NCBI GenBank assembly: GCA_965215225.1
Contig: OZ244039.1
Coordinates: 1,725,353-1,789,352 of the forward strand
DNA: 64,000 nt
Source: Gammaproteobacteria bacterium
GTDB lineage: Bacteria; Pseudomonadota; Gammaproteobacteria; CBDBNL01; JAAOII01
Reading direction: 5' to 3'
Part shown: positions 2,096 through 30,222 of the stretch, piece after piece
How the letters are laid out: every line of letters starts with the position of its first letter
How positions within the stretch are numbered: the first letter of the stretch is position 1
Notes under the pieces: generated by a model
Told to the model about the DNA's origin: nothing
The model's database searches: none
What the model saw: the letters and a program-made list of their open reading frames with translations, nothing else
Made by a program: the position numbers and the translations under genes

Positions 2096-2102
2096 AAAAC
2101 CA

Positions 2103-5152: not shown

Positions 5153-5175
5153 GGGGATATTATAGCAACAAAAGA

Positions 5176-6110: not shown

Positions 6111-6261
6111 CTAAATGAAGTTAGGAAAGGCTCCTCTGTAAGCACTTGTGAGCATGTGTGAGCATTATAGTAAGTTAAGCGAGCCTAAGACAGAAGTTGA
6201 AAAAAGGATACCCCGAGTCTATTAGACCCAGGGTATCCAAGGTTCACCAAATAGGAAGATC

Positions 6262-8010: not shown

Positions 8011-9290
8011 CATTCTTTATTCCGCCTCTTCATTCCGTCCCTTTATTCCGCTTCTTTATTCCAGCTCTTTATTCCGCTTCTTCATTCCAGCTCTTTATTC
8101 CGTCCCTTCATCCCACCTCTTTATTTCGCTTCTCTATTCCGTCCCTTCATTCCACCTCTTTATTCTCTTTATTCCCCTCTTCATTCCACCTCTTTATTCC
8201 GTCTCCTTATTCCGCTTCTTCATTCCGCCTCTTTATTCCGCCTCTTTATTCCGCTCCTTTATTCCGTCCCTTTATTCCGCCTCTTTATTCCGTCCCCTTA
8301 TTCCGCTTCTTCATTCCACCTCTTTATTCCGCTTCTTCATTCCAGCTCTTTATTCCGTCCCTTCATTCCACCTCTTTATTCCGCCTCTTCATTCCGTCTC
8401 TTTATTCCGTCCCTTCATTCCACCTCTTTATTTCGCTTCTCTATTCCGTCTCTTTGTTCCGCCTCTTTACTTTGCCTCTCTATTCCGTCTCTTTGTTCCG
8501 CCTCTCTATTCCGTCTCTTTGTTCCGCCTCTTTATTCCACTTCTTCATTCCAGCTCTTTATTCCGCTTCTTCATTCCACCTCTTTATTCCGCCTCTTCAT
8601 TCCGTCCCTTTATTCCGCTTCTTTATTCCAGCTCTTTATTCCGTCCCTTCATTCTACCTCTTTATTTCGTTCCTTCATTCTGCCTCTCTATTCCGTCCCT
8701 TCATTCCGCCTCTTTATTCCCCTCTTCATTTCGCCTCTTTATTCCGCCTCTTTATTCCCCTCTTTATTCGGCCTCTTTATTCGGCCTCTTTATTCGGCCT
8801 CTTTATTCCACCTCTTTATTCCCCTCTTCATTCCGTCTCTTTATTCCGCCTCTTTATTCCGCCTCTTTATTCCGTCCCTTTATTCCGCCTCTTTATTTCG
8901 TCCCCTTATTCCGCTTCTTCATTCCACCTCTTTATTCCGTCCCTTCATCCCACCTCTTTATTTCGCTTCTCTATTCCGTCCCTTCATTCCACCTCTTTAT
9001 TCCGTCTCCCTATTCCGCCTCTTCATTCCGCCTCTTCATTCCGCCTCTTCATTCCGCCTCTTCATTCCGCCTCTTCATTCCGCCTCTTCATTCCGCCTCT
9101 TTATTCCCCTCTTTATTCGGCCTCTTTATTCCACCTCTTTATTTCGCCTCTTTATTCCGCCTCTTTATTCCCCTCTTTATTCGGCCTCTTTATTCCACCT
9201 CTTTATTCCGTCTCCTTATTCCGCTTCTTCATTCCGCCTCTTTATTCCGCCTCTTTATTCCGCTCCTTTATTCCGCCTCTTTATTCCAAT
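8011..9290. repeat. 15-bp tandem repeat array (consensus CTCTTTATTCCGCCT, about 85 degenerate copies)
   Basis: Period-15 repetition is visible directly, with variants such as cttcattccgcct and ctttattcggcct. All three plus-strand frames are open only because the unit lacks stop codons. Confidence 0.9.
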
Positions 9291-9450
9291 TCTTTCGCTG
9301 CGAGTGGAACTTAAGTGCTGATTTTTCATTCCGATTCTTTCGCTGCGAGTGGAACTTAAGTGCTGATCTTTCATTCCGATTCTTTCGCTGCGAGTGGAAC
9401 TTAAGTGCTGATCTTTCACTCCGCCTCTTTCGCTGCGAGTGGATCTCAGC
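9285..9450. repeat. about 53-bp tandem repeat x3 (ttcattccgattctttcgctgcgagtggaacttaagtgctgatc) abutting the clpB 3' end
   Basis: Three near-identical units and a fourth partial unit that overlaps the clpB stop region. Confidence 0.85.
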
Positions 9451-12080
9451 TAGCTCGTCTTCTGTGCTTTTATGGGTTTCTTCTCGGCTACGGGCGACTT
9501 AATAATATAGCGCTTACCATCATAATCCACCAGAAAACTACTGCTGGATTTAAGCTGACCTCCAAGCAACTTTTCTGCCAGCATGTTCTCAACCGACCTC
9601 TGAATAGCACGCTTAAGGGGACGAGCGCCGAAGGCGGGGTCAAAGCCCATGTCCACCAACCCTTCCATCGCCTTATTAGTTAGCTCTAATTGAATTCCAT
9701 ACTCTTGCTCTAACCTATCCTCAAGAAGCTTGAGCTGTAAAGACGCTATATCCTTAACATCCTCTTTAGTGAGGCTGCGAAAGACCACAATTTCATCAAT
9801 GCGATTGATAAATTCAGGACGAAAATAGGAATGAACATGCTGCATCACCATCTCATGAAGAACTGAATAGGACTCGTCCTTGAATTTGTTGATATCCTCC
9901 GACCCAAGATTAGAAGTCATCACTATGACGCAATTACGAAAATCCACCGTCCGCCCCTGACCATCAGTGAGGCGACCATCATCCAAAACCTGTAAGAGCA
10001 CATTAAAGACATCCTTATGTGCCTTTTCCACCTCATCCAACAGGATAAGCGAATAGGGTCGCCGTCTCACCGCTTCGGTTAGCTCGCCCCCTTGCTCATA
10101 ACCGACATAACCAGGCGGGGCACCAATAAATCGAGCGACTGAATGCTTCTCCATATACTCGGACATATCTATTCTCACCATTGCATCACGGCTATCAAAC
10201 AGAAAATCCGCCAATGAGCGACAGAGCTCGGTCTTGCCAACGCCGGTAGGACCAAGAAAAAGGAAAGAGCCGTTGGGGCGGTTGGGGTCACTCAACCCCG
10301 CCCTTGACCTACGGACAGTATTTGATACTGCTTTTATCGCCTCCTTCTGTCCTATGACAGAAGCTGCCAGTTGCTTTTCCATATCCAGTAGCTTACTTCG
10401 CTCACCCGCCAACATTCGTGTTACCGGAATACCAGTCCAAGAAGAAACCACCTCAGCAATCTCATTCTCACTCACCCGACTGCGCACTTCTACTGCCTTG
10501 TCCTTCCTATCCGACTCTATCTTCTGTAAAGATTGATTCAACCGCTTTTCAAGTTCGGGAATGATTCCATATTCCAATTTTGCCACTTTGGTAAGATCTC
10601 CATCGCGATTAGCCGCCTCCTGTTCAATTCTTGTCCTATCCAACTCTGCTTTTATCTCCTGGCTGGTCTGTAATGCCGCCTTCTCTTGTTTGAACTTCTC
10701 ATTCAAGCTGGCAAAGGCCTGTTCTTGCTCGGCTATCTCCTTTTCCAACTGGGACAGCCTCTCTTTAGATGAGGCGTCTTCTTCCTGCTTTAGTGCTTCC
10801 TTCTCTATCTTCATCCGAATGAGCTCTCTTTCTAATTTGTCCAGCTTTTCTGGCTTGGAATCCATTTCCATCCGAATGCGGCTAGCAGCCTCATCCACTA
10901 AATCAATGGCTTTGTCCGGCAGTCGCCTATCACTAATGTATCTATGGGACAAGCGAACCGCTGCCACCAGGGCTGGGTCGGTGATATCTACACCATGGTG
11001 AATCTCGTATTTCTCTTTAAGACCGCGCAGTATGGCAAGCGTATCTGCCTCATCTGGCTCACCAACAAAAACCTTTTGGAAGCGCCGTTCAAGTGCACCA
11101 TCCTTCTCTATGTATTGGCGATACTCATTCAGTGTGGTAGCGCCGACACAATGTAGCTCGCCACGCGCAAGAGCGGGCTTGAGCATATTACTGGCATCCA
11201 TAGCCCCATCTGCCTTGCCCGCCCCCACCAGAGTATGCATCTCATCAATAAAGAGAATGATCTCTCCTTTGAGTTTGCGCAACTCCTTAAGCAGTGCCTT
11301 AAGCCGCTCTTCAAATTCGCCGCGGTATTTGGTGCCCGCAATCAGCATCCCCATATCTAGGGAAAGCACCCGCTTGGACTGCATAGATTGCGGAACTTCA
11401 CGGTTAACTACCCGCTGAGCCAAACCCTCTACTATGGCAGTCTTGCCGACACCCGGCTCGCCTATCAAGACTGGGTTGTTCTTTTGTCGTCTTTGTAGAA
11501 CCTGAATAGTGCGGCGAATCTCATCATCCCTCCCTATGACTGGATCTATCTCCCCCTTTTCAGCGCGTGCAGTCAGGTCTAAAGTATAAAGTGATAGCGC
11601 ATTTTCACCGCTTTCATAAGCGCTGGAATCTACCTTCTGCTCCCCCCTTATATTCTGAATGTCTTCTAGCAGTTTTTCTTTGTCTAGGCCGAGACTACGA
11701 AAAATATCCGCTTCTTTGCCACCAATATCCATGACCCCAGGCAACACCCATTCACCAGAAACATACTTATCGCCATTTTCTTGGGCATATTTTTCTGTCT
11801 TAGTCAATAGCTTAATAAAGGCTCGGCTAGCAGACATTCCAGCCGTCTTGTCGTCCTTCACTTTCGGCAGAGAATCCAATAGCTCCGTCAAGCGAGACTG
11901 AAGTTCCACAATAGAAATCCCCTGTTTGCTAATTAGACGATGAGGGAGACTTTCTTCATTCTCTACCAATGAACTAATAAGGTGCGCCGGCTCCAATTGG
12001 CTATGATCCTTCTCTATGACGAGGGATTGTGCCTGCTGAAGCGCCTCCTTTAGCTTATCGGTAAATTTTTCTACTTGCAT
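9450..12080 (-). CDS. clpB: ATP-dependent chaperone ClpB
   Basis: 876 aa. It has a Clp N-domain, two AAA+ modules (Walker [16 protein letters not shown] and [15 protein letters not shown]) and a long coiled-coil middle domain. Length and architecture are those of ClpB. Confidence 0.95.
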
Positions 12081-12729
12081 AATTCGTTCCTATAAGACTA
12101 TATGGTAATAGATAGCCTAAATACAAGTAATTTCTTGTTGCCTGTGCCTGTGCTTGCTGTGCTTGGCGGATGGTCTAAATAGGAGTGGTTTCACATAGAT
12201 GGGGTTGCGCTGGATAAGGATAGCGCAGACCCTTTTCCTCCATCACAGAAGCGGCCTCTCACAAAGGAAACTGCGTTGGATAATAAGCAATTAATCAACA
12301 ATGAACCGCCAACAAACCAATAATAAACAACAAATCAACAATTATTAGATAAAGATAACACATAAAACAATCATTCCATAACCCCCTAACAGACCATCTA
12401 TGAACAACTTATGAACAACAAATAAACAGAAAGGAAATCACCAAATTAGTTATTTTGGATAGGCTTTGTTTTCAGCTTGCTCATAATAAGCCTGCAACAG
12501 CAATGGAAGAAATTTTTGCTAAGATTTTGTATCACCTGTATCCCCCACAAGACGAGAGTGCGACTAGTTTTACTAGGTCAAATCAGTGCCCTTGTCCCTC
12601 CCCTTTTTGTTTAGACTTAGCGTCCTAGTATAGAGCTGGGATTATATAATCCCATCAAAGAGGTGATGCCATGATAGTGGGAATTTGCCATTAATAATAA
12701 GACCTTGTCCTCACAAGCGGGCCTAGCGG

Positions 12730-13233
12730 CTAGTCCTTGCCAGCCAGAATGCGCCGAATACGCGCCTTGACTGCCGGCGATTCTTCTCTCATGGCAATAG
12801 AGAATAGGTTTTGGGTTTCTTGTTGATATTGAGGATATTGACGGGAAAGTAACCAGAAGCCGTTATAGCTCCAAGCGCGAATAAATTTGTTGTCTTCATC
12901 TAGGCACTGGCGGAAGAAAGCCACTAGTTCCTCTTTGTATTCTTTAGGAATCTGAATAAAGGATAGGGATTGGAGTATGTGCAGTCTTGTTTCCCAATGG
13001 CTCAACTGGGCGAGGAGTTGAAAAAGCATAGTTGTCTCGGCTTGCCCTATTAGTCCTCCTTTGCTAAGATAGGTTTTTAATAGCCAACTGCTTCCTCTTT
13101 GACTTCTCTCTTCTGCCATAAGCCTAAGGATAGTCTTAACAAATCCAGGGTCCTGAGAGTAATTATCATAGATGGTTTGAATCATCTCAAACGATTTGCC
13201 ATCCCAAGCAAGAATGTCTTGTCTAATCGCCAT
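12730..13233 (-). CDS. hypothetical protein, possibly HEAT-repeat DNA alkylation-repair (AlkD-like)
   Basis: 167 aa with predicted helical-repeat character. The assignment is weak and unverified. Confidence 0.25.
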   Translation of the reverse strand: MAIRQDILAWDGKSFEMIQTIYDNYSQDPGFVKTILRLMAEERSQRGSSWLLKTYLSKGGLIGQAETTMLFQLLAQLSHWETRLHILQSLSFIQIPKEYKEELVAFFRQCLDEDNKFIRAWSYNGFWLLSRQYPQYQQETQNLFSIAMREESPAVKARIRRILAGKD

Positions 13234-14460
13234 CTAAATGAAGTTAGGAAAGGCTCCTCTGTAAGCACCTGTGAACATGTGTGAGCATGTGTGAGCATTA
13301 TAGTAAGTTAAGCGAGTCTAAGGACAGAAGTTAAAAAAAAGGATACCCCGAGTCTATTAGACCCAGGGTATCCAAGGTCCACCAAATAAGAAGATCTTAC
13401 ATCTTCATATCCTGATGATATTTAACAGCCCCCGCGTGGAAAGGAACGGCTGATTTCTCATCTGCCATGTCAGTTAATGCCGCTGGTAAAAACTCAACCA
13501 AGTCAGACTCGGCTGAGAAGATAGCTTCAGTCAATGCATAGGCCGTAGCCTCTGTAAGACTACTGGAGCCTACCAGCTTAACCGCAACCCCAAAAGTCCT
13601 AACCGAATGGTCTTGACCCTTATAGGAACCAGCTGGAATACTAACCCATCTGTAATCTGGATTGCCACCAACTAATCTCCTAACCGGATTGCCGTCTATC
13701 CGCACTAACCTAAGCGGGCATAGATCCATCGCAGCCCTAAGCGCAGAAGCAGGATGATGAACCAGATAGATACCCGCATCTATTTCATTGTCGCAAAGTG
13801 CCTGTGTTTGTTGTTGTTGTTCTAGTTCAGACACTGCGCCAAAAGAGGTTGGCATCCATCTATAACCTATCATTAGTTTTTCCATAATGGCACGCATCTC
13901 CGACCCTACCGGACCTAGGTTCATCCGCTTGCCTCTTAGATCATAAAAAGTATCTACATCCACATCAGCACGGGCCAAAACCGTGAAACTATAAGGATGG
14001 AAGGAAGCAAGAGTTCTTAGGTCGTGGAAAGCGCCATCATCAGCAAAGAGATGAGAACCTTCATAAGCATGAGAGTGCCAGTCAGAACGAATTAGAGCTA
14101 GGTCTAATCCACCTGTCTTAAGGCTTTTAACATTAGCGGCCGTCTCTGCCATGCTATTAATCTCACAACTAATGCTGTGTTCGACTGTTTTCTGGTTCAC
14201 TGCTTGGCAAATCAAATCAGCTAACTGATGATAGGCAGCTAGGGAATTGCCCGAACCAAGTCTAATGCTCTTTTGATCTGCAGCCATTAACGAAGTCACA
14301 CTAACAACTGCTATGACAATAACGATTATTATTTTTTTCATAATTGCTATTTATTATTTTTAATAAGAAAGTATTATACCACATGAAAACTTTATCAATT
14401 AGCAATATTAAAGAAAACTATACAAAAAAGAAAAAAACATGCATTTAGGCAAAAAATTTA
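13200..14460. repeat. segmental duplication (parental copy) of the TAXI gene plus flanks; duplicate at about 6075-7330
   Basis: Upstream and downstream flanks (catctaaatgaagttaggaaaggctcctctgtaagcac... and ...aattgctatttattatttttaataagaaagtattataccacatgaaaactttatcaattagcaatattaaagaaaa) are shared by both copies. Confidence 0.85.
13397..14341 (-). CDS. TRAP transporter solute-binding protein, TAXI family (copy 2)
   Basis: 314 aa and about 95% identical to 6262-7206. It lies directly adjacent to dctM. Confidence 0.55.
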   Translation of the reverse strand: MKKIIIVIVIAVVSVTSLMAADQKSIRLGSGNSLAAYHQLADLICQAVNQKTVEHSISCEINSMAETAANVKSLKTGGLDLALIRSDWHSHAYEGSHLFADDGAFHDLRTLASFHPYSFTVLARADVDVDTFYDLRGKRMNLGPVGSEMRAIMEKLMIGYRWMPTSFGAVSELEQQQQTQALCDNEIDAGIYLVHHPASALRAAMDLCPLRLVRIDGNPVRRLVGGNPDYRWVSIPAGSYKGQDHSVRTFGVAVKLVGSSSLTEATAYALTEAIFSAESDLVEFLPAALTDMADEKSAVPFHAGAVKYHQDMKM

Positions 14461-17707: not shown

Positions 17708-17869
17708 ATCAGTTTCCTCATTAATAATAAATAATAGATAATAGATATTCTTATCAAATCCATCTTTTAATTATATCTTTTCTATGGTTTTTAAGTGCTG
17801 GAAACTGGTGAATAACTTCAACCTAAATTGGACTGGTTTTTGGTGAAAGTGCGCCACCATTTTTACTGG

Positions 17870-18148
17870 CGTGAGGGAGGGATGGAGGATAAGGAATGAG
17901 GAACGAAAGATGAGAGATGGAGGGTGAGGGATGAAAGATAAGGAATGAGGAATGAGGAATGGAGGATGAAAGATGAAGGATAGAGGATGAGGAATGAGGG
18001 ATGAGGAATGAGGAATGAGGGATGAGGAATGAGGAATGAGGAATGGAGGATGAAAGATGAAGGATAGAGGATGAGGAATGAGGGACGAAAGATGAGAGAT
18101 GAAGGATGAAGGATGAGAGATGAGAGATGAGAGATGAGAGATGAGAGC
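17870..18148. repeat. 8-bp microsatellite array (GATGARRG, about 35 units), upstream of ATPase copy 1
   Basis: Visible repetition: gatgaggaatgaggaatgagggatgaggaatg...gatgagagatgagagatgagag. Confidence 0.9.
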
Positions 18149-18342
18149 CTTCCCTATCTCAAGTCCGCTGAAGTAATTTCTCTCATTGAGTAGTTTTGCT
18201 TATTTAGTATGTATAATAAATGGCATATATTTTGAATCCATAATGGCGCCTTAATAACGCTTCAATAGGCCTCCTGTTGTGAGATCTTGTGCCTAAGGTC
18301 TGGATTCAAGCTTAAAAATAAACCAATAGCCTCGACAAAATT
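18149..18342 (+). promoter_or_regulatory. conserved roughly 200-bp leader/promoter region of the ATPase cassette (copy 1); contains TTGAGT...TATAAT-like elements
   Basis: The same block (ctctcattgagtagttttgcttatt...tataat(g/a)aatgg...gaatccataatggcgccttaataacgcttcaatagg...ttcaagcttaaaaataaacc) precedes all three ATPase genes. Confidence 0.4.
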
Positions 18343-19458
18343 ATGTTAACACGTTTTGAAGTTTCAAATTATAAGCTTTTCAAAAAGCCCCTCATTTTGA
18401 AACCCCTCCCTCAGATCTTGCTAATCGGAGGGAAAAACAATAATGGGAAAACTAGTATTTTAGAAGCCCTATTCCTAGCTTTCGATCAGTTAGAGCCAGC
18501 TATGCTCTGGAGACATTTTCGATGGAGAGGATTAGCTAAGGTTGATGCAACGTCCTTATTTGAATCGATCTATCACAACTTTGAATTGAATCGGCCCATT
18601 AAGTTTAAGTATACCTTGAATAAAAAAAAGCAAGAGGTGATATATAGATTTCACCGTGCCACTTCCCAATCTTTTGTAGAAAATAAAATCACTGATAAAG
18701 AATTTAGTAGCTTCTCCAATGAAAGTCAAAATCTATACAACCGGATAGTGATTACCGGTCTATCAGAGAACAAAAAAGTTCTAGAAATCCTTCTAATCCA
18801 AACTCAAGATGGTACTTACTTAGATTTTGGAAAAGACATGGGAATTGGAGAAAACATGGAAAAAGCCATAGAATTGATAAAGCAATTTAATCAAAACACC
18901 CGTGTTGGTTTTATCAGTGGAGTCGAATTCATAGCTGCCAAGGAAAATGCCAAGAATTATGACCAGCTAGCAAAGGCAAGGAAAACTGAAAAAATTCTTG
19001 AAGCCCTTCAGATTCTGGAACCAAAGCTAAGCTCTCTAAGCACCATTCAAATGGGGAAAAATTCTGTGATACACGGAGATGTAGAGGGACTCAAATCTTT
19101 GATTCCGTTGCCTTTGATGGGGGAAGGTATAAATCGTCTTATGTCTATTCTTCTGTCTATTTCTAACTTAGAAAATGGAATCCTCTTAATAGATGAGTTG
19201 GAAAATGGATTCCACTGTTCTCTTTTACCAAAGGTCATGAAAGTGATCGCAGAACATGCCCAGTCTAACAAAACACAGGTCATAGCCACCACACACAGTA
19301 GGGAACTGCAGCAAGCAACTCTGGAAAGCTTGCCTCATGATTTGCAAAATAAATTTCGCTATATGCGAATTGACAGAGATGGAGAGGAGTTTAAAATAAG
19401 AAACTATGATTTCGAAATTTTAACAACCGCCATTGAAATCAATTTGGAAACTCGTTAA
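18343..19458 (+). CDS. stand-alone ABC/AAA_21-type ATPase (OLD-family/AbiLi/AriA-like), copy 1
   Basis: Walker A GGKNNNGKTSILEA, an ABC-signature-like LMGEGINRLMSIL, Walker B/D-loop LLIDELENGFH and H-loop IATTHSRE. Confidence 0.75.
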   Translation: MLTRFEVSNYKLFKKPLILKPLPQILLIGGKNNNGKTSILEALFLAFDQLEPAMLWRHFRWRGLAKVDATSLFESIYHNFELNRPIKFKYTLNKKKQEVIYRFHRATSQSFVENKITDKEFSSFSNESQNLYNRIVITGLSENKKVLEILLIQTQDGTYLDFGKDMGIGENMEKAIELIKQFNQNTRVGFISGVEFIAAKENAKNYDQLAKARKTEKILEALQILEPKLSSLSTIQMGKNSVIHGDVEGLKSLIPLPLMGEGINRLMSILLSISNLENGILLIDELENGFHCSLLPKVMKVIAEHAQSNKTQVIATTHSRELQQATLESLPHDLQNKFRYMRIDRDGEEFKIRNYDFEILTTAIEINLETR

Positions 19459-19487: not shown

Positions 19488-20141
19488 ATGAGTGACTCAA
19501 CAGAACACGAAAAAACCGAAACGATTGATGAAAAAAAGATTCTCATTGTGGAGGGCAAGGACGAAGAAAATTTTCTAAAAGCTCTATTTAAAATCCTAAA
19601 ACTCGAAAACATTCAAATAAAGTCGACTAGAGGGAAGGACCAAATAAATAGAAAAATAAAAGGATTGGTTCTAACCGAAGGTTGGGATGATGTCGAATCC
19701 ATAGGTCTAATTAGAGATGCAGATAAAAGTGCTAACCGCGCATTTGCTAGTCTTACTGGCGTGCTAAAAAGGAGCCGCCTTCCAATTCCGAATTCACCTG
19801 GCACTTTTTCTAGACAGATGCCAAAAAAAGGCAAACCAAGAACTGGAATTTTTATCATTCCCGATGGAAAAAATCAAGGAGCACTTGAATCCTTGTGCTT
19901 ATCCACAGTGAAGGAGGATAATCCAAAAATTGTGGAATGCATTGATAGCTTTATGAAGTGCAATAAAGATCTGAAAAGCAGATATAAAAAACCCAGAAAC
20001 GAAGATAAAGCCAGATGCAAAGCCTTTCTATCCCTTATGGAAGAGGACACCTCTTCTTTAGGGGTGGCAGCTCAAAAGAATTACTGGGATTGGAAATCAA
20101 ATGGTCTCAAACCCTTAATAGAGTTTTTAAAAGAATTATAA
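19488..20141 (+). CDS. small TOPRIM-like partner protein (AbiLii/RloB/DUF4276- or DUF4435-like), copy 1
   Basis: The N-terminal ILIVEGKDEENFL carries the TOPRIM-type acidic residue and the downstream GLIRDADK is a DxD-like motif. It has a Cys/His cluster (CLSTV...CIDSFMKC...C) and is co-oriented 29 bp after the ATPase. Confidence 0.55.
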   Translation: MSDSTEHEKTETIDEKKILIVEGKDEENFLKALFKILKLENIQIKSTRGKDQINRKIKGLVLTEGWDDVESIGLIRDADKSANRAFASLTGVLKRSRLPIPNSPGTFSRQMPKKGKPRTGIFIIPDGKNQGALESLCLSTVKEDNPKIVECIDSFMKCNKDLKSRYKKPRNEDKARCKAFLSLMEEDTSSLGVAAQKNYWDWKSNGLKPLIEFLKEL

Positions 20142-20174
20142 AACTAGGCTGCCTCTAGCTGAAATCCGATAAGA

Positions 20175-20393
20175 GCCTCCCCTATCTCGAGTCAGCCGAA
20201 ACAATTTCTCTCATTGAGTAGTTTTTGCTTATTCATTAGGTATAATGAATAGATTCTCTCTCATAAGAGGGATGAATATATTTTGAATCCATAATAGCGC
20301 CTTAATAACGCTTCAATAGGTTTCGTGTTGTGAGATCTTGTGCCTAAGGTCTGGATTCAAGCTTAAAAATAAACCAATAGCCTCGACAAAATT
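20175..20393 (+). promoter_or_regulatory. conserved leader/promoter region of the ATPase cassette (copy 2), without an 8-bp array
   Basis: Same conserved block as 18149-18342. Confidence 0.4.
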
Positions 20394-21509
20394 ATGTTAA
20401 CACGTTTTGAAGTTTCAAATTATAAGCTTTTCAAAAAGCCCCTCATTTTGAAACCCATCCCTCAGATCTTGCTAATCGGAGGGAAAAACAATAATGGGAA
20501 GACTAGTATTTTAGAAGCCCTATTCCTAGCTTTCGATCAGTTAGAGCCAGCTATGCTCTGGAGACATTTTCGATGGAGAGGATTAGCTAAGGTTGATGCA
20601 ACGTCCTTATTTGAATCGATCTATCACAACTTTGAATTGAATCGGCCCATTAAGTTTAAGTATACCTTGAATAAAAAAAAGCAAGAGGTGATATATAGAT
20701 TTCACCGTGCCACTTCCCAATCTTTTGTAGAAAATAAAATCACTGATAAAGAATTTAGTAGCTTCTCCAATGAAAGTCAAAATCTATACAACCGGATAGT
20801 GATTACCGGTCTATCAGAGAACAAAAAAGTTCTAGAAATCCTTCTAATCCAAACTCAAGATGGTACTTACTTAGATTTTGGAAAAGACATGGGAATTGGA
20901 GAAAACATGGAAAAAGCCATAGAATTGATAAAGCAATTTAATCAAAACACCCGTGTTGGTTTTATCAGTGGAGTCGAATTCATAGCTGCCAAGGAAAATG
21001 CCAAGAATTATGACCAGCTAGCAAAGGCAAGGAAAACTGAAAAAATTCTTGAAGCCCTTCAAATTCTGGAACCAAAGCTAAGCTCTCTAAGCACCATTCA
21101 AATGGGGAAAAATTCTGTGATACACGGAGATGTAGAGGGACTCAAATCTTTGATTCCGTTGCCTTTGATGGGGGAAGGTATAAATCGTCTTATGTCTATT
21201 CTTCTGTCTATTTCTAACTTAGAAAATGGAATCCTCTTAATAGATGAGTTGGAAAATGGATTCCACTGTTCTCTTTTACCAAAGGTCATGAAAGTGATCG
21301 CAGAACATGCCCAGTCTAACAAAACACAGGTCATAGCCACCACACACAGTAGGGAACTGCAGCAAGCAACTCTGGAAAGCTTGCCTCATGATTTGCAAAA
21401 TAAATTTCGCTATATGCGAATTGACAGAGATGGAGAGGAGTTTAAAATAAGAAACTATGATTTCGAAGTTTTAACAACCGCCATTGAAATCAATTTGGAA
21501 ACTCGCTAA
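20394..21509 (+). CDS. stand-alone ABC/AAA_21-type ATPase, copy 2 (about 99% identical to copy 1)
   Basis: Only a few substitutions relative to copy 1 (KPLPQ to KPIPQ, FEILT to FEVLT). Confidence 0.75.
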   Translation: MLTRFEVSNYKLFKKPLILKPIPQILLIGGKNNNGKTSILEALFLAFDQLEPAMLWRHFRWRGLAKVDATSLFESIYHNFELNRPIKFKYTLNKKKQEVIYRFHRATSQSFVENKITDKEFSSFSNESQNLYNRIVITGLSENKKVLEILLIQTQDGTYLDFGKDMGIGENMEKAIELIKQFNQNTRVGFISGVEFIAAKENAKNYDQLAKARKTEKILEALQILEPKLSSLSTIQMGKNSVIHGDVEGLKSLIPLPLMGEGINRLMSILLSISNLENGILLIDELENGFHCSLLPKVMKVIAEHAQSNKTQVIATTHSRELQQATLESLPHDLQNKFRYMRIDRDGEEFKIRNYDFEVLTTAIEINLETR

Positions 21510-21533
21510 ATATTGGTATATTATGTAAAAAAT

Positions 21534-22205
21534 ATGACAACGAGCAACTCAACAGAACGCGAAAACCTCGAAACGATTGATAAAGAAAAAATTCTCATTG
21601 TGGAAGGCAAAGACGAAGAAAATTTTCTAAAAGCTCTATTTAAGATCCCACAACTTGAACCACAACTCGAAAATATCCAAATAAAGCCACTTGAAGGGAA
21701 GGATCAATTACATAAAAGAATGAAGGCATGGGTTCTAACCTCAGGTTGGGATGATGTCAAATCCATAGGTCTAATTAGAGATGCAGATAAAAGTGCTAAG
21801 AGTGCATTTGATAGTATTGCTGGTGTGCTAAAAAGAAACGGCCTTTCAATTCCAAATTCACCTGGCACCTTTTCTAAACAGATTCCAAAAAAGGGCAAGC
21901 CAAGGACTGGGATCTTTATCATTTCCAATGGAAAAGATCATGGAACACTTGAATCCTTGTGCTTATCTACAGTGAAGGAGAATAATTCGAAAATGGTGAA
22001 ATGCATTGACAGTTTTATGAAATGCAATAAAGACCTGGACACTGAGTATGAAAAACCCAAAAACGAAGATAAAGCCAGATGCAGAGCCTTTCTCTCCCTT
22101 ATGGAAGAGGATACCCCTTCTTTAGGGGTGGCAGCTCAAAAGAATTACTGGAATTGGGAATCAAATAGTCTCAAACCCTTAATAGAGTTTTTAGAACAAT
22201 TATAA
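21534..22205 (+). CDS. small TOPRIM-like partner protein, copy 2 (about 75% aa identity to copy 1)
   Basis: The ORF track starts at 21513 (MVYYVKNM...). The Met at 21534 (MTTSNSTE...) aligns with the copy-1 start. The ILIVEGKDEENFL and IRDADKSAK motifs are conserved. Confidence 0.55.
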   Translation: MTTSNSTERENLETIDKEKILIVEGKDEENFLKALFKIPQLEPQLENIQIKPLEGKDQLHKRMKAWVLTSGWDDVKSIGLIRDADKSAKSAFDSIAGVLKRNGLSIPNSPGTFSKQIPKKGKPRTGIFIISNGKDHGTLESLCLSTVKENNSKMVKCIDSFMKCNKDLDTEYEKPKNEDKARCRAFLSLMEEDTPSLGVAAQKNYWNWESNSLKPLIEFLEQL

Positions 22206-22344
22206 AAACCAAGCTATCTCTAGCTGAAATCCATAGAGGCAATTCACTATATCTTTTCTATAGTTTTAAGTGCTAGAAACTGATGTATAACTTCAATTGG
22301 ACTGGTTTTTGGTGAAAGTGTGCCATCATTTTTGCTGGCGTGAG

Positions 22345-22615
22345 GGAGGGATGACATGATGAAGGATGAGGGATGAAAGATGAAAGATGAAAGATGAAAG
22401 ATGAAAGATGAAAGATGAAAGATGAAAGATGAAAGATGAAAGATGAGAGATGAGAGATGAGAGATGAGAGATGAAGGATGAAGGATGAAGGATGAGAGAT
22501 GAGGGATGACATGATGAAGAATGAGAGATGAAGGATGAAAGATGAAGGGTGAAAGGTGAAGAATGAAGAATGAAGGATGAGGGATGAGGGATGGAGGATG
22601 GAAGATGAAAGATAA
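22345..22615. repeat. 8-bp microsatellite array (GATGAAAG/GATGAGAG), upstream of ATPase copy 3
   Basis: gatgaaagatgaaagatgaaag... shows period 8. It is preceded by the same 60-bp block (ggactggtttttggtgaaagtg...ctggcgtgagggagggatg) as the array at 17870. Confidence 0.9.
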
Positions 22616-22847
22616 GAGACTTCTCTATCTCAAGTCCGTTGCAACAATTTCTCTCATTGAGTAGTTTTGCTTATTCATTAAGTATAATGAATGGCTTCTC
22701 TCTCATAAGAGGGATGAGTGTATTTTGAATCCATAATGATGCCTTAATACAATAACCAATAACGCTTCAATAGGCCTCTTATTGTGAGATGTAGCGTCTA
22801 TGGTTTGGGTTCAAGCTTAAAAATAAACCTATAACCTATACAAACTT
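22616..22847 (+). promoter_or_regulatory. conserved leader/promoter region of the ATPase cassette (copy 3)
   Basis: Same conserved block as at 18149 and 20175, but more diverged. Confidence 0.4.
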
Positions 22848-23951
22848 ATGTTAACACATTTTGAAGTCTCAAATTTCAAGCTTTTCAAAAAGCCCTTCAT
22901 TTTGAAATCCATCCCTCAGATTTTGCTAATTGGAGGGGAAAACAATAGTGGGAAAACTAGTATTTTGGAAGCCCTATTACTACCTTTCGATCAGTTAGAT
23001 TCGGGTATGTTCGTGAAGCATCTTCAATGGCGAGGATTAACCAATATTGAAGTGGAATCTTTATTTGAATTGATATATCACAACCTTGAATCGAATCAGC
23101 CTATTAAGTTTAAATATACCCTTAATGGAAAAAAGCAAGAGGTGACATATACATTTCACCAAGATGACTCCCCGCCTATTACAGAAACAGACGATGATAT
23201 CATTGATATTGGGAGAGAGATTCTTAGCTTATCCAGTGAAACTCAAAAGCTATACGACCGGATAGTTATTTCCTGTCTATCAAAGAACAAAGAAGTTTTT
23301 CAACTCCATCTAATGGACACCCAAGAGGGTATTTACCTAGATTTTGGCAAAAACACAAAAAAAGCTGTCGAATCGATAGCACAATTTAATCAAGATTTCT
23401 ATGTTAGTTTTATCAGTGCAACTCAACCCACATCTTCCAGAGGAAATGCCGAGAGGTTTGACCAGTTAGCAAGGGCAAGGAAAACTGAAAAGCTTCTTGA
23501 AGCCCTTCAAATTATGGAACCAAAGCTAAAATCTCTAAGCACCATTGAAATGGGGGAAGAACCGGTAATATATGGAGATATGGAGAGACTCAAGATTCCG
23601 TTGTCTTTGATGGGTGAGGGTATAAATCGTCTTATGTCCATTCTTCTATCCATTTCTTGCTCAGGAAATGGAATCACCTTAATAGATGAGTTGGAAAATG
23701 GATTCCACTATTCTCTTTTACCGAAGGTCATGAAAGTGATCGCAGAACATGCCCAGTCTAACAGGGCGCAGGTGATAGCCACCACATACAGTAGGGAACT
23801 GCTGCAGGCAACTGTGGAAAGCTTGCCTCAGGATTTACAAGATAAATTTCGCTATATGCGAATTGACAGAGATGGAGATGAGTTTAAAATAAGAAACTAT
23901 GATTTCAAAGTTTTAGCAACCTCCCTTGAAGCCAATTTCGAAACTCGCTGA
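22848..23951 (+). CDS. stand-alone ABC/AAA_21-type ATPase, copy 3 (diverged, about 70% identity; no partner gene downstream)
   Basis: Walker A GGENNSGKTSILEA, LLIDELENGFHYS and IATTYSRE (H-loop His replaced by Tyr). Confidence 0.7.
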   Translation: MLTHFEVSNFKLFKKPFILKSIPQILLIGGENNSGKTSILEALLLPFDQLDSGMFVKHLQWRGLTNIEVESLFELIYHNLESNQPIKFKYTLNGKKQEVTYTFHQDDSPPITETDDDIIDIGREILSLSSETQKLYDRIVISCLSKNKEVFQLHLMDTQEGIYLDFGKNTKKAVESIAQFNQDFYVSFISATQPTSSRGNAERFDQLARARKTEKLLEALQIMEPKLKSLSTIEMGEEPVIYGDMERLKIPLSLMGEGINRLMSILLSISCSGNGITLIDELENGFHYSLLPKVMKVIAEHAQSNRAQVIATTYSRELLQATVESLPQDLQDKFRYMRIDRDGDEFKIRNYDFKVLATSLEANFETR

Positions 23952-24039
23952 ATATCCCATCCATTCTCTTTCTTGATAAGCGCAATTAGTTAGAAGAACT
24001 ATTATTAATGCGTTTTTTAGTGCCCTGTTAGTGATGGCG

Positions 24040-24870
24040 CTAGCCGAGATCATGGGTGGAGGATATTAATGATAGATTTAGTAAGCTAGCAAGAAACTGG
24101 GAAAGAGCTCGGAGCTGGTGAGCTAGGAGGATGGGTGGGGGATATTAATGATAGCAAAAATAGGCTAGCGAGAAATTGGAAATAGCTCGGAGCTGGTGAG
24201 CTAGGATGATGGATGGGACATATTAATCATAGATTTAATAGGCTAGCAAGAAACTGGAAATGGGTCGGAGCTGGTGAGCTAGGATGATGGATGGGGGATA
24301 TTTAGGGGATATTAATGATAGATTTAATAGGCTAGAAAATAGGCTAGCAAGAAACTGGAAATGGGGCGGAGCTGGTGAGCTAGGAGGATGGATGGGAGAT
24401 ATTTAGGGGATATTAATGATAGCAAAAATAGGCTAGAAAATAATCTAGCAATAAATTAGAAATGGGGCGGAGCTGGTGAACTAGGAGGATGGATGGGGGA
24501 TATTTAGGGGATATTAATGATAGCTTTAATAGGCCAGCAATAAATTGGGAATAGCTCGGAGCTGGTGAGCTAGGAGGATGGATGGGGGATATTTAGGGGA
24601 TATTAATGATAGCTTTAATAGGCCAGCAAGAAACTGGGAATAGCTCGGAGCTGGTGAGCTAGGATGATGGATGGGGGATATTTAGGGGATATTAATGATA
24701 GCAAAAATAGGCTAGAAAATAAGCTAGCAATAAATTGGAAATGGGGCGGAGCTGGTGAGCTAGGAGGATGGATGGGGGATGGGAAATATTAATGATAGCA
24801 AAAATAGGCTAGTAAATAGGCTAGTAAGAAATTGGAAATGGGTCGGAGCTGATGAGCTAGGATGGAGGCA
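24040..24870. repeat. about 88-100-bp tandem repeat array (about 9 units: ...ggctagcaagaaactggaaatggggcggagctggtgagctaggaggatggatgggggatatttaggggatattaatgatag...)
   Basis: Visible periodic recurrence of gagctggtgagctagga and atattaatgatag. Confidence 0.85.
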
Positions 24871-26076
24871 CTAGAGTCCGAGTAGGGTCATGCCGGGATA
24901 TTCAAGGAATTCCTTAATATGGACTAGAAATTCAACTGCGGTTTTGCCATCAATCATCCTGTGGTCATAGGACAGAGCGAGATACATCATAGGCAGAATA
25001 ACCACCTCGCCATTAACAGCAACTGGGCGCTCCTGAATCTTATGCATACCGAGGATGCCAGTTTGAGGCGGATTAATGATAGGAGTAGACATTAAGGAGC
25101 CAAAGACGCCACCATTAGAAATAGTAAAGGTGCCTCCTTGTAGGTCTTCCAACGTAAGTTTCGCCTCTTGGGCTTTTTTGCCATAGCTTCTAATAGTCTC
25201 TTCAATCTGTGCCAATGACATAGATTGGGCATCCCTGAGGATAGGAACTACCAGCCCGCGAGGGGAAGAGACCGCAATGCCTATATCTTGATAATTACAA
25301 TAGACTATGTCGGTGCCATCTATATGGGCATTTACCTGCGGAAATTTATAAAGAGCAGAGCAAACTGCTTTGACAAAAAAGGACATGAAGCCCAGCCGAA
25401 CTCCATATTTCTCTTCAAACGGCTTCTTGTATCTAGTGCGCAATTCCATCACAGGTTGCATATTTACCTCGTTGAAAGTAGTGAGTATGGCAGCCTGCCG
25501 TTGTGATTCAACTAGTCTTTTTGCCACGCTCATTCGCAGCCGTGTCATAGGCACTCGCTTCTCAACTCTTTGATGGCCGCCCCTCTGTGCTATGTCCTGT
25601 TTGGTAATGAAAGGGCCTTGATTGTGGGTCTCCACTTCTACCCCGGTCTCAGCTGCCAAGCGCCGAGCGGCCGGACCCATCTTGCCAGCTAGTCTTCCAG
25701 CTAGCTCTGTTTCACTTGTTTTGGCAGCAGTTGTATGGGATGAAAGATTTTCAGTAGCCTCTGGTGGCTCGGCTAGTTTTTCCTGTGGTGCTGATTCAAT
25801 CTCACTTGATTTAGGTGGGGGCTTCTTCGCTGGCTCTTCTTTTGTCTTTTCATAATTGGCTATTACCTGTTGCGCCTTAACTGTGCTGCCTTCGGCGACA
25901 AGTATGCTAGTCATAATGCCCGAACTTGGCGCTGGCACTTCCAACACTATCTTATCGGTTTCCACATCTACTAGGGGTTCATCACGGCGGAAAGACTCGC
26001 CCTCCTTCTTATGCCAACGAGCAATGGTGCCCTCCTCTATTGATTCGGGAAAGACTGGGACTCTTATATCTGTCAT
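24871..26076 (-). CDS. sucB: dihydrolipoyllysine-residue succinyltransferase (2-oxoglutarate dehydrogenase E2)
   Basis: Lipoyl domain ([25 protein letters not shown]...[15 protein letters not shown]), an Ala/Pro-rich linker, a PSBD, and the catalytic domain ending DHRMIDG. The ORF track extends to 26121 ([21 protein letters not shown]) through the 9-bp repeats, so the start is ambiguous. Confidence 0.9.
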
Positions 26077-26079
26077 GCC

Positions 26080-26335
26080 TGCCATATCCGCCATATCCGC
26101 CATATCTGCCAGATACACCACTTCTTCTGTGTCTCTACCATATTTGCTATCTCCTTATATCCGCTATCTCTGCCATATCCGCCATACCCTCGATATCTAC
26201 CATACTCGCCATATCCGCCATAGCTGCCATATCCGCCATACCCTCGATATCTGCCATATCTGACATATCTGCCAGATACACCACTTCTTCTGTATCTCTA
26301 TCATATTTGCCATCTCCTCATATTCGCTATCTCTG
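26080..26335. repeat. 9-bp tandem repeats (GCCATATCC on the plus strand, GGAUAUGGC on the mRNA) in the sucA-sucB intergenic region
   Basis: Runs such as gccatatccgccatatccgccatatctgcc. Two blocks are separated by ccagatacaccacttcttctgt(g/a)tctct. Confidence 0.85.
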
Positions 26336-26361
26336 CTATTTCTCCATCGTCATTATATTCA

Positions 26362-29217
26362 TCACTGACTAAATGCCATATCCAAAAGCCGCAGCTGTTC
26401 TCTTTGGTGCAAAGCAAGGTAACCAGTTGCAGGTGCTGCCGAAGCTGGTCGGCCGGCAAAGGACAGATTAACATTGACAGAACAGTTGCGAGCGGCTATT
26501 TCAAGATGGTGTTTGCTACTATACCAAGCGCCCTGATTCATAGGTTCTTCTTGACACCAGACTAGTTTTTCTAACGAAGGATATTTCTTCAATCTCTCGG
26601 CCAGCTCAGCATGAGGAAAAGGGTAGAGCTGTTCAAGGCGAATGATGGCGGTATCCCAAAGGGATTCATCCTTGCGCTTTTCCTCAAGTTCATAAAAGAC
26701 CTTGCCACTGCATAGGATGACTCGCTTAACTTCTCTAGGCTTGATGCGATGAGACGCCTCTCCTATGACCGGTTTGAACCCCCCCTTAGATAGTCTGGCT
26801 AAAGGAGACGAGGCTTCTTTTTTGCGCAACAGGCTCTTAGGCATCATCACCACCAATGGCATTCTTAGTGGGCGGACTACCTGACGGCGCAACATATGAA
26901 AAACCTGAGCTGCGGTAGATGGTATGCATACCTGCATATTACTACCTGCGCAAAGTTGAAGAAATCGTTCCAACCTTGCTGAAGAATGTTCCGGCCCCTG
27001 CCCCTCATAGCCATGGGGCAAGAATAGGACCAAACCACAAAGCCGCTGCCACTTGGTCTCGCCACTGGAGAGAAACTGGTCTATTACTACTTGAGCGCCA
27101 TTGGCAAAATCGCCGAACTGTGCCTCCCATATTGCTAGGGTATTAGGGCTGGTGGTAGCATAACCATATTCAAACGCCAAAACCGCCTCCTCAGATAAGA
27201 AAGAATCGAACACCTGCACCAGCGGCTGGTCAGCAAAGAAGTTCTTTACATGATAATAGCCTTCCCCGGTCTTTTGGTCATGAATGACTGCATGACGATG
27301 TGAGAAGGTGCCGCGCCGCGAGTCCTGTCCGCTCATCCTCACCATAAATCCTTCATAGGTAAGAGAGCCATAGGCCAGTAGTTCGGCATAACCCCAATCA
27401 ACTGGCTTGTTGCCCAAGCGCATCTGTTTGCGATCTTCTAGTAGTTTCCTAACCTGACGATGAGGAGTAAAGTCAGCGGGAACCTCCTCAAGTTGCTTGC
27501 CTATCTTGGCGAGCGTCTCCTTATTCACCCCAGTTGGATAACGGCTCTTCCACTTATGATTCAAATAAGGAGTCCAATCAACATAGAGCCTAGTGTTTGG
27601 TTTCTCTACCAGACTGCGCGAAACATGGTCTCCTTTATATAGATGGTCGCGATATTCCTCCTTCATCTCGGTGAAGGCCTGCTCGGTTATTATGTCTTCT
27701 CCTATCAGCTTCTTTCCATAGATATCGCAAGGACTAGACAGCCTATTAATCTGCTGATACATCACAGGCTGAGTGATAGAAGGCTCATCCGCCTCATTAT
27801 GCCCATGCTTTCTATAACAAACCATATCCACCACCACATCGGAGTTAAACTTCATCCTATACTCCAATGCAAGCTCGGTGGCGTAAATCAGCGCCTCTGG
27901 ATCATTGCCATTGACATGAAGAATAGGCGCCTCAATAATCTTAGCAACATCAGTAGCATAAAAAGTAGAACGAGCATCGCCAGTTTTGCTAACCGTAAAA
28001 CCTATCTGATTGTTTAAGATGATATGAACAGTTCCCCCAGTCTTATAGCCGCGCAACTGAGACATCTGTAAGGTCTCCATCACTACCCCTTGACCAGAAA
28101 AGGCCGCATCACCATGAATGATAACTGGTAAGACCTCAACCCCTCTTCTATCGCCTCGCCGATCCTGCCGCGCGCGCACCGAACCTTCCACTACTGGCCC
28201 TACTATTTCCAAATGAGATGGGTTAAAGGACAAAGCCAGGTGCACCTCCCCGCCATCAGTTCTAACATTGGAAGAGAACCCCTGGTGGTATTTAACATCG
28301 CCACCGAAGTTCTCGTCATCAAAACTGAACTTGCCTTCAAATTCTTCAAATAACAATGCTGGGTTCTTCCCCAATATATTTACCAACATATTCAACCGCC
28401 CCCGATGCGCCATTCCTATGACCATTTCCTTAATACCCACCAACCCGCTCGCTTGGACTAGGCTATCCATCATAGGTATGAGCGCCTCCCCACCCTCGAG
28501 ACCAAAGCGCTTGGTGCCTGGGTACTTTGTTGCCAGTGAATGTTCGAATCCCTCGGCTGCCACCAATCTCTCTAGGATGCGTAATTTTCTGTCCTTATTA
28601 AAGTTGTAATTCCCTTGAGCGCTTTCAATTTTCTCTTGAAACCACCGCTTCTTACCCGTCTCACTAAGATACATAAACTCAGCGCCTATAGAACCGCAAT
28701 AGGTTTTCTTCAGCCTTCTCAACAGGTCTTCGATACTCAGAACAGAGCTGCCAAAGAAGGTCTTGGAGACATCATAGACCGAAGCCGAATCCTTAAGAGC
28801 CAGCCCATGCTCAACCTGCTCTAAGTCCTTACCGTCATTAATGCTTCTATACTCTAAGGGATTGACATTGGCTTTTTTGTGACCATAGGTGCGATAAGCA
28901 TTAATAAGCGCATTGACTCTCTCTTGATGAAATCCTGGCTGTTCATCCAGGACCTCAGCCAAACCATTGTCATTGCCTCCATTACGCAGCAGATCCTGAA
29001 TATCTTTTTCTACCTCTGGGTAGGAAATCTCTTGCCCATGCCCAAGTCGGTCAAAATAGGCTTGCCAGGACTGCTGCAGTTTCGCCCGCTGGTTAATATA
29101 ATCGCCATAGATAGTTTCCATATAGCCTATATTACCGGCAGCGAGATGAGAGCTGGTGTAGTCTAAATGCTCCTCTTCTTTCTGCTTCTCCGTTCTACTC
29201 CCCTCTTTCTTGGTCAT
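26362..29217 (-). CDS. sucA: 2-oxoglutarate dehydrogenase E1 component
   Basis: 951 aa. The TPP-dependent E1 region (...GHNEADEPS...) and the length fit SucA. It lies immediately upstream of sucB on the same strand. Confidence 0.9.
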   Translation of the reverse strand: MTKKEGSRTEKQKEEEHLDYTSSHLAAGNIGYMETIYGDYINQRAKLQQSWQAYFDRLGHGQEISYPEVEKDIQDLLRNGGNDNGLAEVLDEQPGFHQERVNALINAYRTYGHKKANVNPLEYRSINDGKDLEQVEHGLALKDSASVYDVSKTFFGSSVLSIEDLLRRLKKTYCGSIGAEFMYLSETGKKRWFQEKIESAQGNYNFNKDRKLRILERLVAAEGFEHSLATKYPGTKRFGLEGGEALIPMMDSLVQASGLVGIKEMVIGMAHRGRLNMLVNILGKNPALLFEEFEGKFSFDDENFGGDVKYHQGFSSNVRTDGGEVHLALSFNPSHLEIVGPVVEGSVRARQDRRGDRRGVEVLPVIIHGDAAFSGQGVVMETLQMSQLRGYKTGGTVHIILNNQIGFTVSKTGDARSTFYATDVAKIIEAPILHVNGNDPEALIYATELALEYRMKFNSDVVVDMVCYRKHGHNEADEPSITQPVMYQQINRLSSPCDIYGKKLIGEDIITEQAFTEMKEEYRDHLYKGDHVSRSLVEKPNTRLYVDWTPYLNHKWKSRYPTGVNKETLAKIGKQLEEVPADFTPHRQVRKLLEDRKQMRLGNKPVDWGYAELLAYGSLTYEGFMVRMSGQDSRRGTFSHRHAVIHDQKTGEGYYHVKNFFADQPLVQVFDSFLSEEAVLAFEYGYATTSPNTLAIWEAQFGDFANGAQVVIDQFLSSGETKWQRLCGLVLFLPHGYEGQGPEHSSARLERFLQLCAGSNMQVCIPSTAAQVFHMLRRQVVRPLRMPLVVMMPKSLLRKKEASSPLARLSKGGFKPVIGEASHRIKPREVKRVILCSGKVFYELEEKRKDESLWDTAIIRLEQLYPFPHAELAERLKKYPSLEKLVWCQEEPMNQGAWYSSKHHLEIAARNCSVNVNLSFAGRPASAAPATGYLALHQREQLRLLDMAFSQ

Positions 29218-29222
29218 AAGAA

Positions 29223-29519
29223 TTAATGATAATAGATATATTCACTTCGCGATGCAACTAGATTATCCACTATGGTGACTACAAAGGTATGATCCTTTAT
29301 AACAGTAGAATAAGACCATATTAATTTGGTTCCTCCTATATATGGCTCCTCAACATAGGGCACTCCCAGTAAATCAATCAGTTGTTGTTGTGTCATACCC
29401 ACCTCAACCTCACTTGTTCGTTCAACTGGAAAGAAGGTGCCGCTGGTATGAGTCTCAGTAGTAGCACAAGCGACCAGAAGCCCGCTCAACACCAGGGCTG
29501 CCAATATCCTAGCTGCCAT
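29223..29519 (-). CDS. small putative lipoprotein (98 aa) between sdhB and sucA
   Basis: Signal peptide with lipobox MAARILAALVLSGLLVAC. No recognisable family. Confidence 0.4.
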   Translation of the reverse strand: MAARILAALVLSGLLVACATTETHTSGTFFPVERTSEVEVGMTQQQLIDLLGVPYVEEPYIGGTKLIWSYSTVIKDHTFVVTIVDNLVASRSEYIYYH

Positions 29520-30219: not shown

Positions 30220-30222
30220 AAT

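Follow-up and report, generated by a model that had tools for sequence, protein, structure and literature searches.

Two hypervariable heptamer arrays upstream of predicted AbiL-like ATPase/TOPRIM cassettes in an uncultured gammaproteobacterium

When a short tandem repeat lies directly upstream of genes of a potentially toxic, defence-type class, the question arises whether the repeat tunes the expression of these genes or is simply tolerated where it stands. This question is raised by a 64,000-nucleotide stretch of a Gammaproteobacteria bacterium (GenBank assembly GCA_965215225.1, contig OZ244039.1, positions 1,725,353 to 1,789,352; hereafter the window), where two short-unit arrays form part of a locus in which a two-gene cassette is repeated three times in tandem; the cassette encodes an AAA_15/AAA_21 ATPase and a DUF3226/OLD-like TOPRIM protein. 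By its ParE the bacterium falls among divergent Gammaproteobacteria, Solemya symbionts and Thiotrichales being the closest named relatives (~59%), and its contig is 2.32 Mb long. The arrays are real, far beyond chance, and they are strong hot spots of unit-wise insertion and deletion (indel). The explanation that we favour, with evenly balanced confidence, is that they are tolerated, non-adaptive microsatellites whose length drifts rapidly, a by-product of a repeat-accumulating genome. The two arrays are as follows:

17868-18147, plus strand: heptamer array 1, 280 bp, a GGCGTGAGGGAGGG head followed by ~38 GATGARR units
22337-22618, plus strand: heptamer array 3, 282 bp, the same GGCGTGAGGGAGGG head as in array 1 followed by ~38 units

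These extents were taken between fixed flanking anchors (GSCGTGAGGGAGG ... CTTCYCTATCTC). A first-pass annotation of this DNA had placed the arrays correctly, and Tandem Repeats Finder (TRF) recovers them at 17877-18145 (period 7, 38.4 copies) and 22358-22613 (period 7, 36.4 copies), but the annotation had described about 35 copies of an 8-bp unit, GATGARRG. The unit is in fact 7 bp long, GATGARR, and ~38 units are counted after the head. Base-identity autocorrelation reaches 0.74-0.82 at lags 7, 14, 21 and 28, against 0.24-0.44 at other lags and only 0.28-0.30 at lag 8, which together with TRF rules out the 8-mer, a reading that arises because the G opening the next unit is counted twice. In 2000 mononucleotide shuffles the lag-7 value was 0.38 +/- 0.03, with a maximum of 0.49, and the 56 matches to (GATGARR)3 with at most 2 mismatches in the window all fall within the two arrays, against a shuffle expectation of 0.

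The plus strand of the arrays is 84-86% purine. Array 1 ends on its promoter-proximal side in a perfect (ATGAGAG)x5, while the composition of array 3 is dominated by (ATGAAAG)x10, (ATGAGAG)x4 and (ATGAAGG)x3; in the window and related strains, perfect runs 5-17 units long are set in degenerate arrays of ~38-139 units, and the unit variants found within and between strains include GATGAGG, AATGAGG, GATGAAA, GATAAGA and GGTAAGA. Arrays 1 and 3 have just 9 of 40 aligned units in common, which indicates that each has turned over internally since the duplication.

The same locus was retrieved from other assemblies via exact-protein look-ups. One of these, L001 (ENA ERZ25070776), is a 1.8-Mb contig that is ~95% identical and has the three-copy layout of the window, including both arrays in their places and an array-less copy 2. 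In the other, L030 (ENA ERZ25070786), the ATPase DNA is 98% identical and copy 1 is present, array 3 being outside its coverage. Array 1 measures 280 bp (~39 units) in the window, 287 bp (~40 units) in L001 and 981 bp (~139 units) in L030, a range of up to 3.5-fold between strains, and array 3 measures 282 bp in the window vs 268 bp in L001; the copy-1 intergenic region is 1344 bp in L030 vs 636 bp in the window. Between the window and L001, array 1 differs by 11 unit indels and 1 substituted unit and array 3 by 4 unit indels and 2 substitutions, while in the adjacent flanks (160 bp and 195-229 bp) only 0-6 substitutions and a single indel, of 8 bp, are seen. Window and L001 agree in the first 9 units, and L030 departs from them in one. 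Nearly every change is a gain or loss of whole units, concentrated in stretches of identical units, whose run lengths differ between strains (ATGAGAG x5, x11 and x14-17; ATGAAAG x10 and x8; ATGAAGA x1 and x3), and the strain differences also include duplicated multi-unit blocks. Over 13.4 kb of the window (25790-39224), the assembly holding L030 is 97.9% identical with just 9 gaps. Since whole units change and the flanks stay stable, the arrays are indel hot spots, as slipped-strand mispairing or unequal exchange predicts, and we infer that slippage is probably the mechanism. The annotation had expected slippage-prone lengths and had named invariance across strains as the outcome that would speak against its idea; array length proves not to be invariant, and the locus is a sensitive strain-typing marker.

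Both arrays are bounded by sequence that recurs at the locus, with the following layout:

17772-17867, no strand: upstream block, copy 1; ancestral dctP-ATPase intergenic DNA, conserved in the array-less outgroup L029
18148-18342, plus strand: shared leader and putative promoter region, copy 1; conserved 19-mer, TATAAT at 18212-18217
20142-20393, plus strand: copy 2 upstream region; no block or array, unit GATAAGA at 20168-20174, then the shared leader with TATAAT at 20241-20246
22248-22336, no strand: upstream block, copy 2; duplicated dctP-side intergenic piece, now after the copy-2 TOPRIM gene
22619-22847, plus strand: shared leader and putative promoter region, copy 3; TATAAT at 22683-22688

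A block common to both arrays does precede them, as had been annotated, although its length is ~95 bp and not 60 bp. The two block copies are ~90% identical, apart from one 6-bp and one 1-bp indel, and the 24-mer core of the block is found at two sites only within the window. In block copy 1 the minus strand has an exact TATAAT (17775->17770), 62 nt ahead of the start codon of dctP, so the promoter of dctP is probably contained in the block. A weak hairpin that resembles a terminator, with a T-run, lies at the end of block copy 1 (17841-17866), and a terminator-like hairpin precedes the array at both sites.

On their other side both arrays abut a leader of 195-229 bp that is common to all three ATPase copies, again in agreement with the annotation, so that they lie 195-229 bp upstream of the ATPase ATG. 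The leader contains an invariant 19-mer, AATTTCTCTCATTGAGTAG (18175-18193 in copy 1). Within ~18232-18318 of the leader, and at the equivalent positions of the other two copies, 10 bp of long-range complementarity are conserved (TTTGAATCCA/TGGATTCAAG); this stem shows almost no covariation, which speaks neither for nor against a structure. An insert of 22 nt that resembles a hairpin, TTCTCTCTCATAAGAGGGATGA, is present in the leaders of copies 2 and 3, occurs as the variant CCTCTCTCATAAGAGAAATAAG in L029 and is deleted in copy 1. The residual unit GATAAGA of copy 2 is joined 26 bp past the copy-1 TOPRIM stop codon.

The origin of the arrays can be approached through the outgroup L029 (JGI 3300007064), whose ATPase is 71% identical in protein. 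Its locus has the synteny dctPQM, one cassette, sucB/sucA, with block and leader clearly homologous in the dctP-ATPase spacer. Between block and leader lie ~115 bp of unique DNA ending in GATGGAGGATGGATTGGGGATG (L029 4419-4440), directly before TTCCCTATC; TRF finds no array in this spacer, and the L029 locus has one long tandem array only. Since block and leader are present in the array-less L029, the block is ancestral intergenic DNA and not a mobile element, and since L029 is array-less but has the proto-repeat, the array is a young, lineage-specific expansion of these 2-3 units. A mobile element or miniature inverted-repeat transposable element with an internal microsatellite was considered and rejected, the block being found at two window sites only, as ancestral intergenic DNA that is array-less in L029. 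The array before ATPase 3 came from duplication or conversion of block, array and leader, because ATPase 3 is 81% identical in DNA to copy 1, and thus as divergent as L029, while the blocks are ~90% identical. The array is dispensable for an intact-looking cassette, as seen in copy 2 and in L029; the annotation had regarded the array as separable on the ground that unit 2 lacks it, and this is true in both checkable strains.

Further searches add little to this set of strains. Exact-protein look-ups with the window DctP, ATPase copy 3 and P0001 gave no matches, and the Logan contigs for P0005 and P0006 begin within the shared leader and stop short of any array. Among GTDB genomes scanned with the ATPase, the closest relatives were only 40-44% identical, in metagenome-assembled genomes (MAGs) labelled Bdellovibrionales, and none had an upstream heptamer array. 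One Bdellovibrionales-labelled MAG, L006 (ATPase 43% identical), has unrelated repeats, 50 bp x2.3 and 33 bp x3.4, directly upstream (5135-5248 and 5807-5919). A viral-contig scan for (GATGARA)5 returned a single unrelated 6-unit match, and the 19-mer of the 5' junction, CTGGCGTGAGGGAGGGATG, gave six matches in metagenome contigs, all by chance and none with an array.

The genes that the arrays precede are arranged in this way:

18343-19458, plus strand: ATPase copy 1; AAA_15/AAA_21, best PADLOC matches AbiLi and PDC-M38A
19488-20141, plus strand: DUF3226/OLD-like TOPRIM partner, copy 1; PDC-M38B
20394-21509, plus strand: ATPase copy 2; 99.5% protein identity to copy 1
21513-22205, plus strand: DUF3226/TOPRIM partner, copy 2
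22848-23951, plus strand: ATPase copy 3; an old paralogue with 67% protein and 81% DNA identity to copy 1

The ATPase matches the Pfam families AAA_15 (2e-22) and AAA_21 (6e-19), and in PADLOC AbiLi (E = 6e-45), PDC-M38A (E = 3e-40) and AriA (E = 1e-21). Its partner matches DUF3226 (2e-37) and PDC-M38B (E = 6e-17) and has a weak OLD-like TOPRIM match, its other PADLOC matches (AriAB, mad4, Old) being weak; in copies 1 and 2 it is co-oriented and lies 3-29 bp downstream of the ATPase. These matches suggest an AbiL-like/PDC-M38-like cassette, predicted to be a module of anti-phage type. As in AbiL, PDC-M38 and PARIS-type systems, an AAA_15/AAA_21 ATPase is followed by a DUF3226/OLD-like TOPRIM protein, although here the partner is DUF3226 and there are three tandem copies, one of them without a partner. 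On one side of the locus stands dctPQM, a TRAP transporter operon on the minus strand whose start codon is at 17707, and on the other sucB/sucA, likewise on the minus strand.

The cassettes are decaying: copy 3 is orphaned, no DUF3226 partner or remnant being found downstream of its ATPase, and TOPRIM copy 1 is disrupted in L001. In L001 this gene is a pseudogene (11145-11798, corresponding to window 19488-20141), in which codon 4 is TAA instead of TCA (window 19498) and one nucleotide is deleted by an A7 run (window 19821), and its ATPase is protein-identical to that of the window. Downstream of ATPase copy 3 (within window 22848-24862) the gap up to sucB is filled by 815 bp of 78-101-bp repeats, and the length of these repeats also differs in L001. 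ATPase copies 1 and 2, with 99.5% protein identity in the window, are only ~90% identical in DNA in L001, and their TOPRIM partners have 75% protein and 83% DNA identity. Because the ATPases are near-identical in the window, ~90% identical in DNA in L001 and accompanied by partners at 75% protein identity, the comparison points to recent gene conversion confined to leader and ATPase in the window lineage.

Whether the arrays act on these genes depends in part on where they lie. A distance of 64 bp separates the array end from the one TATAAT that is conserved (18212, 20241 and 22683 in copies 1, 2 and 3), which lies downstream and would be the cassette promoter. The arrays would thus lie outside the putative core promoter and not between promoter hexamers, and a consensus scan found no ATPase-facing promoter-like site in or upstream of them. 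Conserved helical phase from block to leader is absent, the distances being 26.7, 27.3 and 93.4 turns for array 1 and 26.9 and 25.5 turns for array 3. The annotation had suggested that the arrays could alter promoter spacing or activity or bind a regulator; a putative role of this kind gains no support here and is favoured by neither position nor genome context.

The genome context is one of abundant repeats. Tandem arrays (TRF score >= 100) make up 13.3% of the window, a repeat load that is unusually high for a ~2.3 Mb bacterial genome. TRF arrays occur at 8014-9443, 24048-24862, 26081-26274, 36254-36703, 45351-47005, 49324-50896 and 56463-57062, and the types present in the window include a 13-bp unit x99, 66-bp units x25 and x24, 78-101-bp units, a 150-bp unit x4 and others; the 815-bp array occupies a gap without a promoter, where ATPase 3 and sucB converge.

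Under the explanation that we favour, an AbiL-like ATPase/TOPRIM cassette would at first have had a 2-3-unit proto-repeat (GATGGAGGATGGA..) ~60-70 bp ahead of its conserved TATAAT. This proto-repeat would have grown through slippage during replication and through unequal exchange, with the loss of ~95 bp of unique spacer, and the expanded region with part of the dctP-side block would later have been copied before the third ATPase paralogue. Length would keep changing in whole 7-bp units, chiefly in the pure promoter-proximal runs, the older and degenerate 5' units staying fixed. Because it lies outside the core promoter, the array would be tolerated at a place where extra DNA does little harm. 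Physically, it would put 280-980 bp between the core promoter and the DNA farther upstream, which is the divergent dctP promoter in the case of array 1 and the copy-2 operon end with its weak terminator-like hairpin in the case of array 3. If expression were affected at all, the effect would be a graded side-effect and not a switch under selection.

Several points weigh against this account. Both arrays have been kept at two paralogous sites in every strain that can be checked, and they lie directly upstream of the promoter region of potentially toxic, defence-class genes, a class that is often phase-variable in expression. The GATGAAA unit, moreover, is the duplex heptamer that tunes hmw1A/hmw2A in Haemophilus influenzae. 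Finally, that a selected function is absent is itself an argument from context, and we infer it as such.

These same points carry the alternative that survives best, which we consider possible but doubtful: a locus resembling hmw, under selection as a contingency locus or rheostat, in which the number of units sets transcription (in a graded manner, or ON/OFF at long lengths) of a costly ATPase/TOPRIM module of abortive-infection type, and the population thereby hedges phage protection against self-toxicity. The closest functional precedent is the promoter heptamer of hmw1A/hmw2A in nontypeable H. influenzae, where (5'-ATCTTTC)n, also written (TGAAAGA)n, varies from 9 to 63 units by slipped-strand mispairing and expression falls as the repeat number rises. 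There two promoters have been mapped, with the tract between them; it overlaps the P2 -10 and the P1 -35 elements, and P2 transcripts include it. The likeness is considerable, as both are 7-bp tandem repeats upstream of a gene at two paralogous loci in one genome; the hmw duplex repeat is a rotation of the reverse complement of GATGAAA, which dominates array 3; and unit number varies widely between isolates, 9-63 there and ~36-139 here. Traits of hmw-type contingency loci are seen here, namely a short unit with long pure runs and unit number polymorphic between close strains, here up to 3.5-fold between ~98% identical ones, and the perfect runs of 5-17 units have lengths typical of hypermutable tracts. 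That every strain checked has kept both arrays, immediately ahead of the leader that the defence-type cassettes share, is also in keeping with a selected role.

There are also differences from hmw. The hmw tract is pure, while the arrays here are mosaics of related units, most of each array being degenerate and static. Unlike the hmw tract they do not overlap promoter hexamers, ending upstream of the only conserved TATAAT with no gene-facing promoter found farther upstream. The purine-rich strand is the sense strand here, whereas hmw promoter diagrams write ATCTTTC, so that the orientation is apparently opposite. Moreover, copy 2 and the outgroup manage without an array, the cassettes show decay, and many arrays in the genome are unrelated to promoters. 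The shared heptamer is coincidence or convergence and not homology, because the organisms are unrelated. By analogy with hmw it could be imagined that slippage over 36-139 units tunes or silences cassette copies independently, leaving the array-less copy 2 constitutive, as bet-hedging of a toxic defence convergent with the hmw heptamer, but we consider this more specific proposal unlikely. The locus is a promoter-proximal hypervariable microsatellite, of a kind already known.

Two other classes of repeat bear comparison. Phase variation through simple sequence repeats (SSRs) is known for defence genes, such as mod/hsdS of Type I/III restriction-modification systems and pglX of BREX/Pgl, in tracts that are mostly intragenic and frame-switching. 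These SSR-switched systems resemble the present locus in combining hypermutable simple repeats with anti-phage genes that are costly to express, and differ in that the tract here is non-coding and upstream of the promoter, and the module is an AbiL-like/PDC-M38-like ATPase with a TOPRIM protein. Direct repeats of the heptamer TAACTGA have been described in intergenic regions of Beggiatoaceae, cyanobacteria and Bacteroidetes (MacGregor 2015, PMC4679880). Like the arrays here they are intergenic heptamer direct repeats in Gammaproteobacteria, reaching 43 copies in some genomes, but they consist of one fixed unit at ~170 dispersed sites per genome, usually in 2-6 copies and a few nucleotides from start codons (PMC4679880). 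GATGARR, the unit of the present arrays, is confined to two paralogous sites within the 64 kb, 195-229 bp upstream of the start codon. Membership in a dispersed family of the TAACTGA type was therefore rejected, as unit, dispersal and start-codon proximity are not matched.

It is improbable that the arrays serve as a binding platform or architectural element, whether for a regulator, a nucleoid-associated silencer, an insulator or a non-B structure of the purine strand, with the array parting the cassette promoter from the dctP promoter (array 1) or from copy-2 read-through (array 3). Each array would offer ~38 near-identical 7-bp sites with a marked strand asymmetry (84-86% purine); array 1 lies between divergent promoters, and the terminator-like hairpin stands before both arrays. 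However, no candidate array-binding protein is encoded nearby, the unit sequence drifts freely within and between strains, unlike a conserved operator, and the outgroup and copy 2 are without an array.

Very improbable is a transcribed array acting as RNA, in the form of a long 5' untranslated region with GGAG/AUG/UGA mini-open reading frames (mini-ORFs), a pyrimidine-rich antisense RNA or a minus-strand repeat peptide. Every plus-strand unit has an ATG overlapping a TGA, the minus strand of array 3 is stop-free with an open 79-codon ORF (22273-22512), and a minus-strand promoter-like site (18367->18340) points toward array 1, its equivalent (20418->20391) fronting the array-less copy 2. Promoter-like matches in the region, however, number 19 vs 18.8 in shuffles, and Rfam returned nothing on the locus or the whole window except one tRNA. 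A 7-bp unit shifts the frame at each repeat, with TGA in all three plus-strand frames, array 1 has no minus-strand ORF of at least 60 aa, and the unit indels between strains would scramble the downstream frame. The array 3 minus-strand ORF was rejected as coding, being a mechanical result of the stop-free pyrimidine repeat. An assembly or sequencing artefact is hardly credible, for although repeats of this sort make assembly difficult and the Logan contigs of related cassettes, built from short reads, break within the shared leader, the arrays recur at matching positions in three independent assemblies, with first units and flanks identical, and the length differences are clean multiples of 7 bp.

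Other features of the region deserve mention. One of the window arrays, with the 13-bp unit x99 (TCTTTATTCCGCC), is flanked by a tRNA on one side and by the clpB 3' end on the other. Genes are triplicated in tandem at a second place, on the minus strand, where three large paralogous ORFs (42657-44972, 46995-48929 and 50899-53061) have internal 84-87-bp repeats and no Pfam family except one weak TSP_3 match; the long 66-bp arrays (45351-47005 and 49324-50896) separate the three ORFs, and T-rich ~20-bp arrays lie just upstream of two of them. Two NMT1_3 solute-binding genes (6262-7206 and 13397-14341) form a duplicate pair with ~95% DNA identity, each followed by TGTGAGCATG repeats (6147-6165 and 13270-13298). 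Between clpB and a 167-aa ORF, L001 carries at 1884-4013 (compare window 12080-12730) an extra SocA_Panacea gene and two N6_N4 methyltransferase ORFs that are not in the window, so that the clpB-sucAB interval behaves as a variable defence island.

The significance of the locus depends on how the question posed at the outset is answered. If the arrays do tune expression, repeat-driven phase or rheostat variation would reach beyond cultured pathogens, with their surface-antigen and restriction-modification genes, to an abortive-infection-type ATPase/TOPRIM module of a bacterium that is uncultured. Otherwise, the locus would offer a clean, dated case of microsatellite birth, from a 2-3-unit proto-repeat to ~40 and then ~140 units, bearing on how repeat-tolerant genomes (13% of the window) lose control of repeat expansion. 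In either case, the natural allelic series of 0 (ancestor-like), 1, ~38, ~40 and ~139 units, together with its tie to a defence-type cassette, makes this locus a good and cheap test case.

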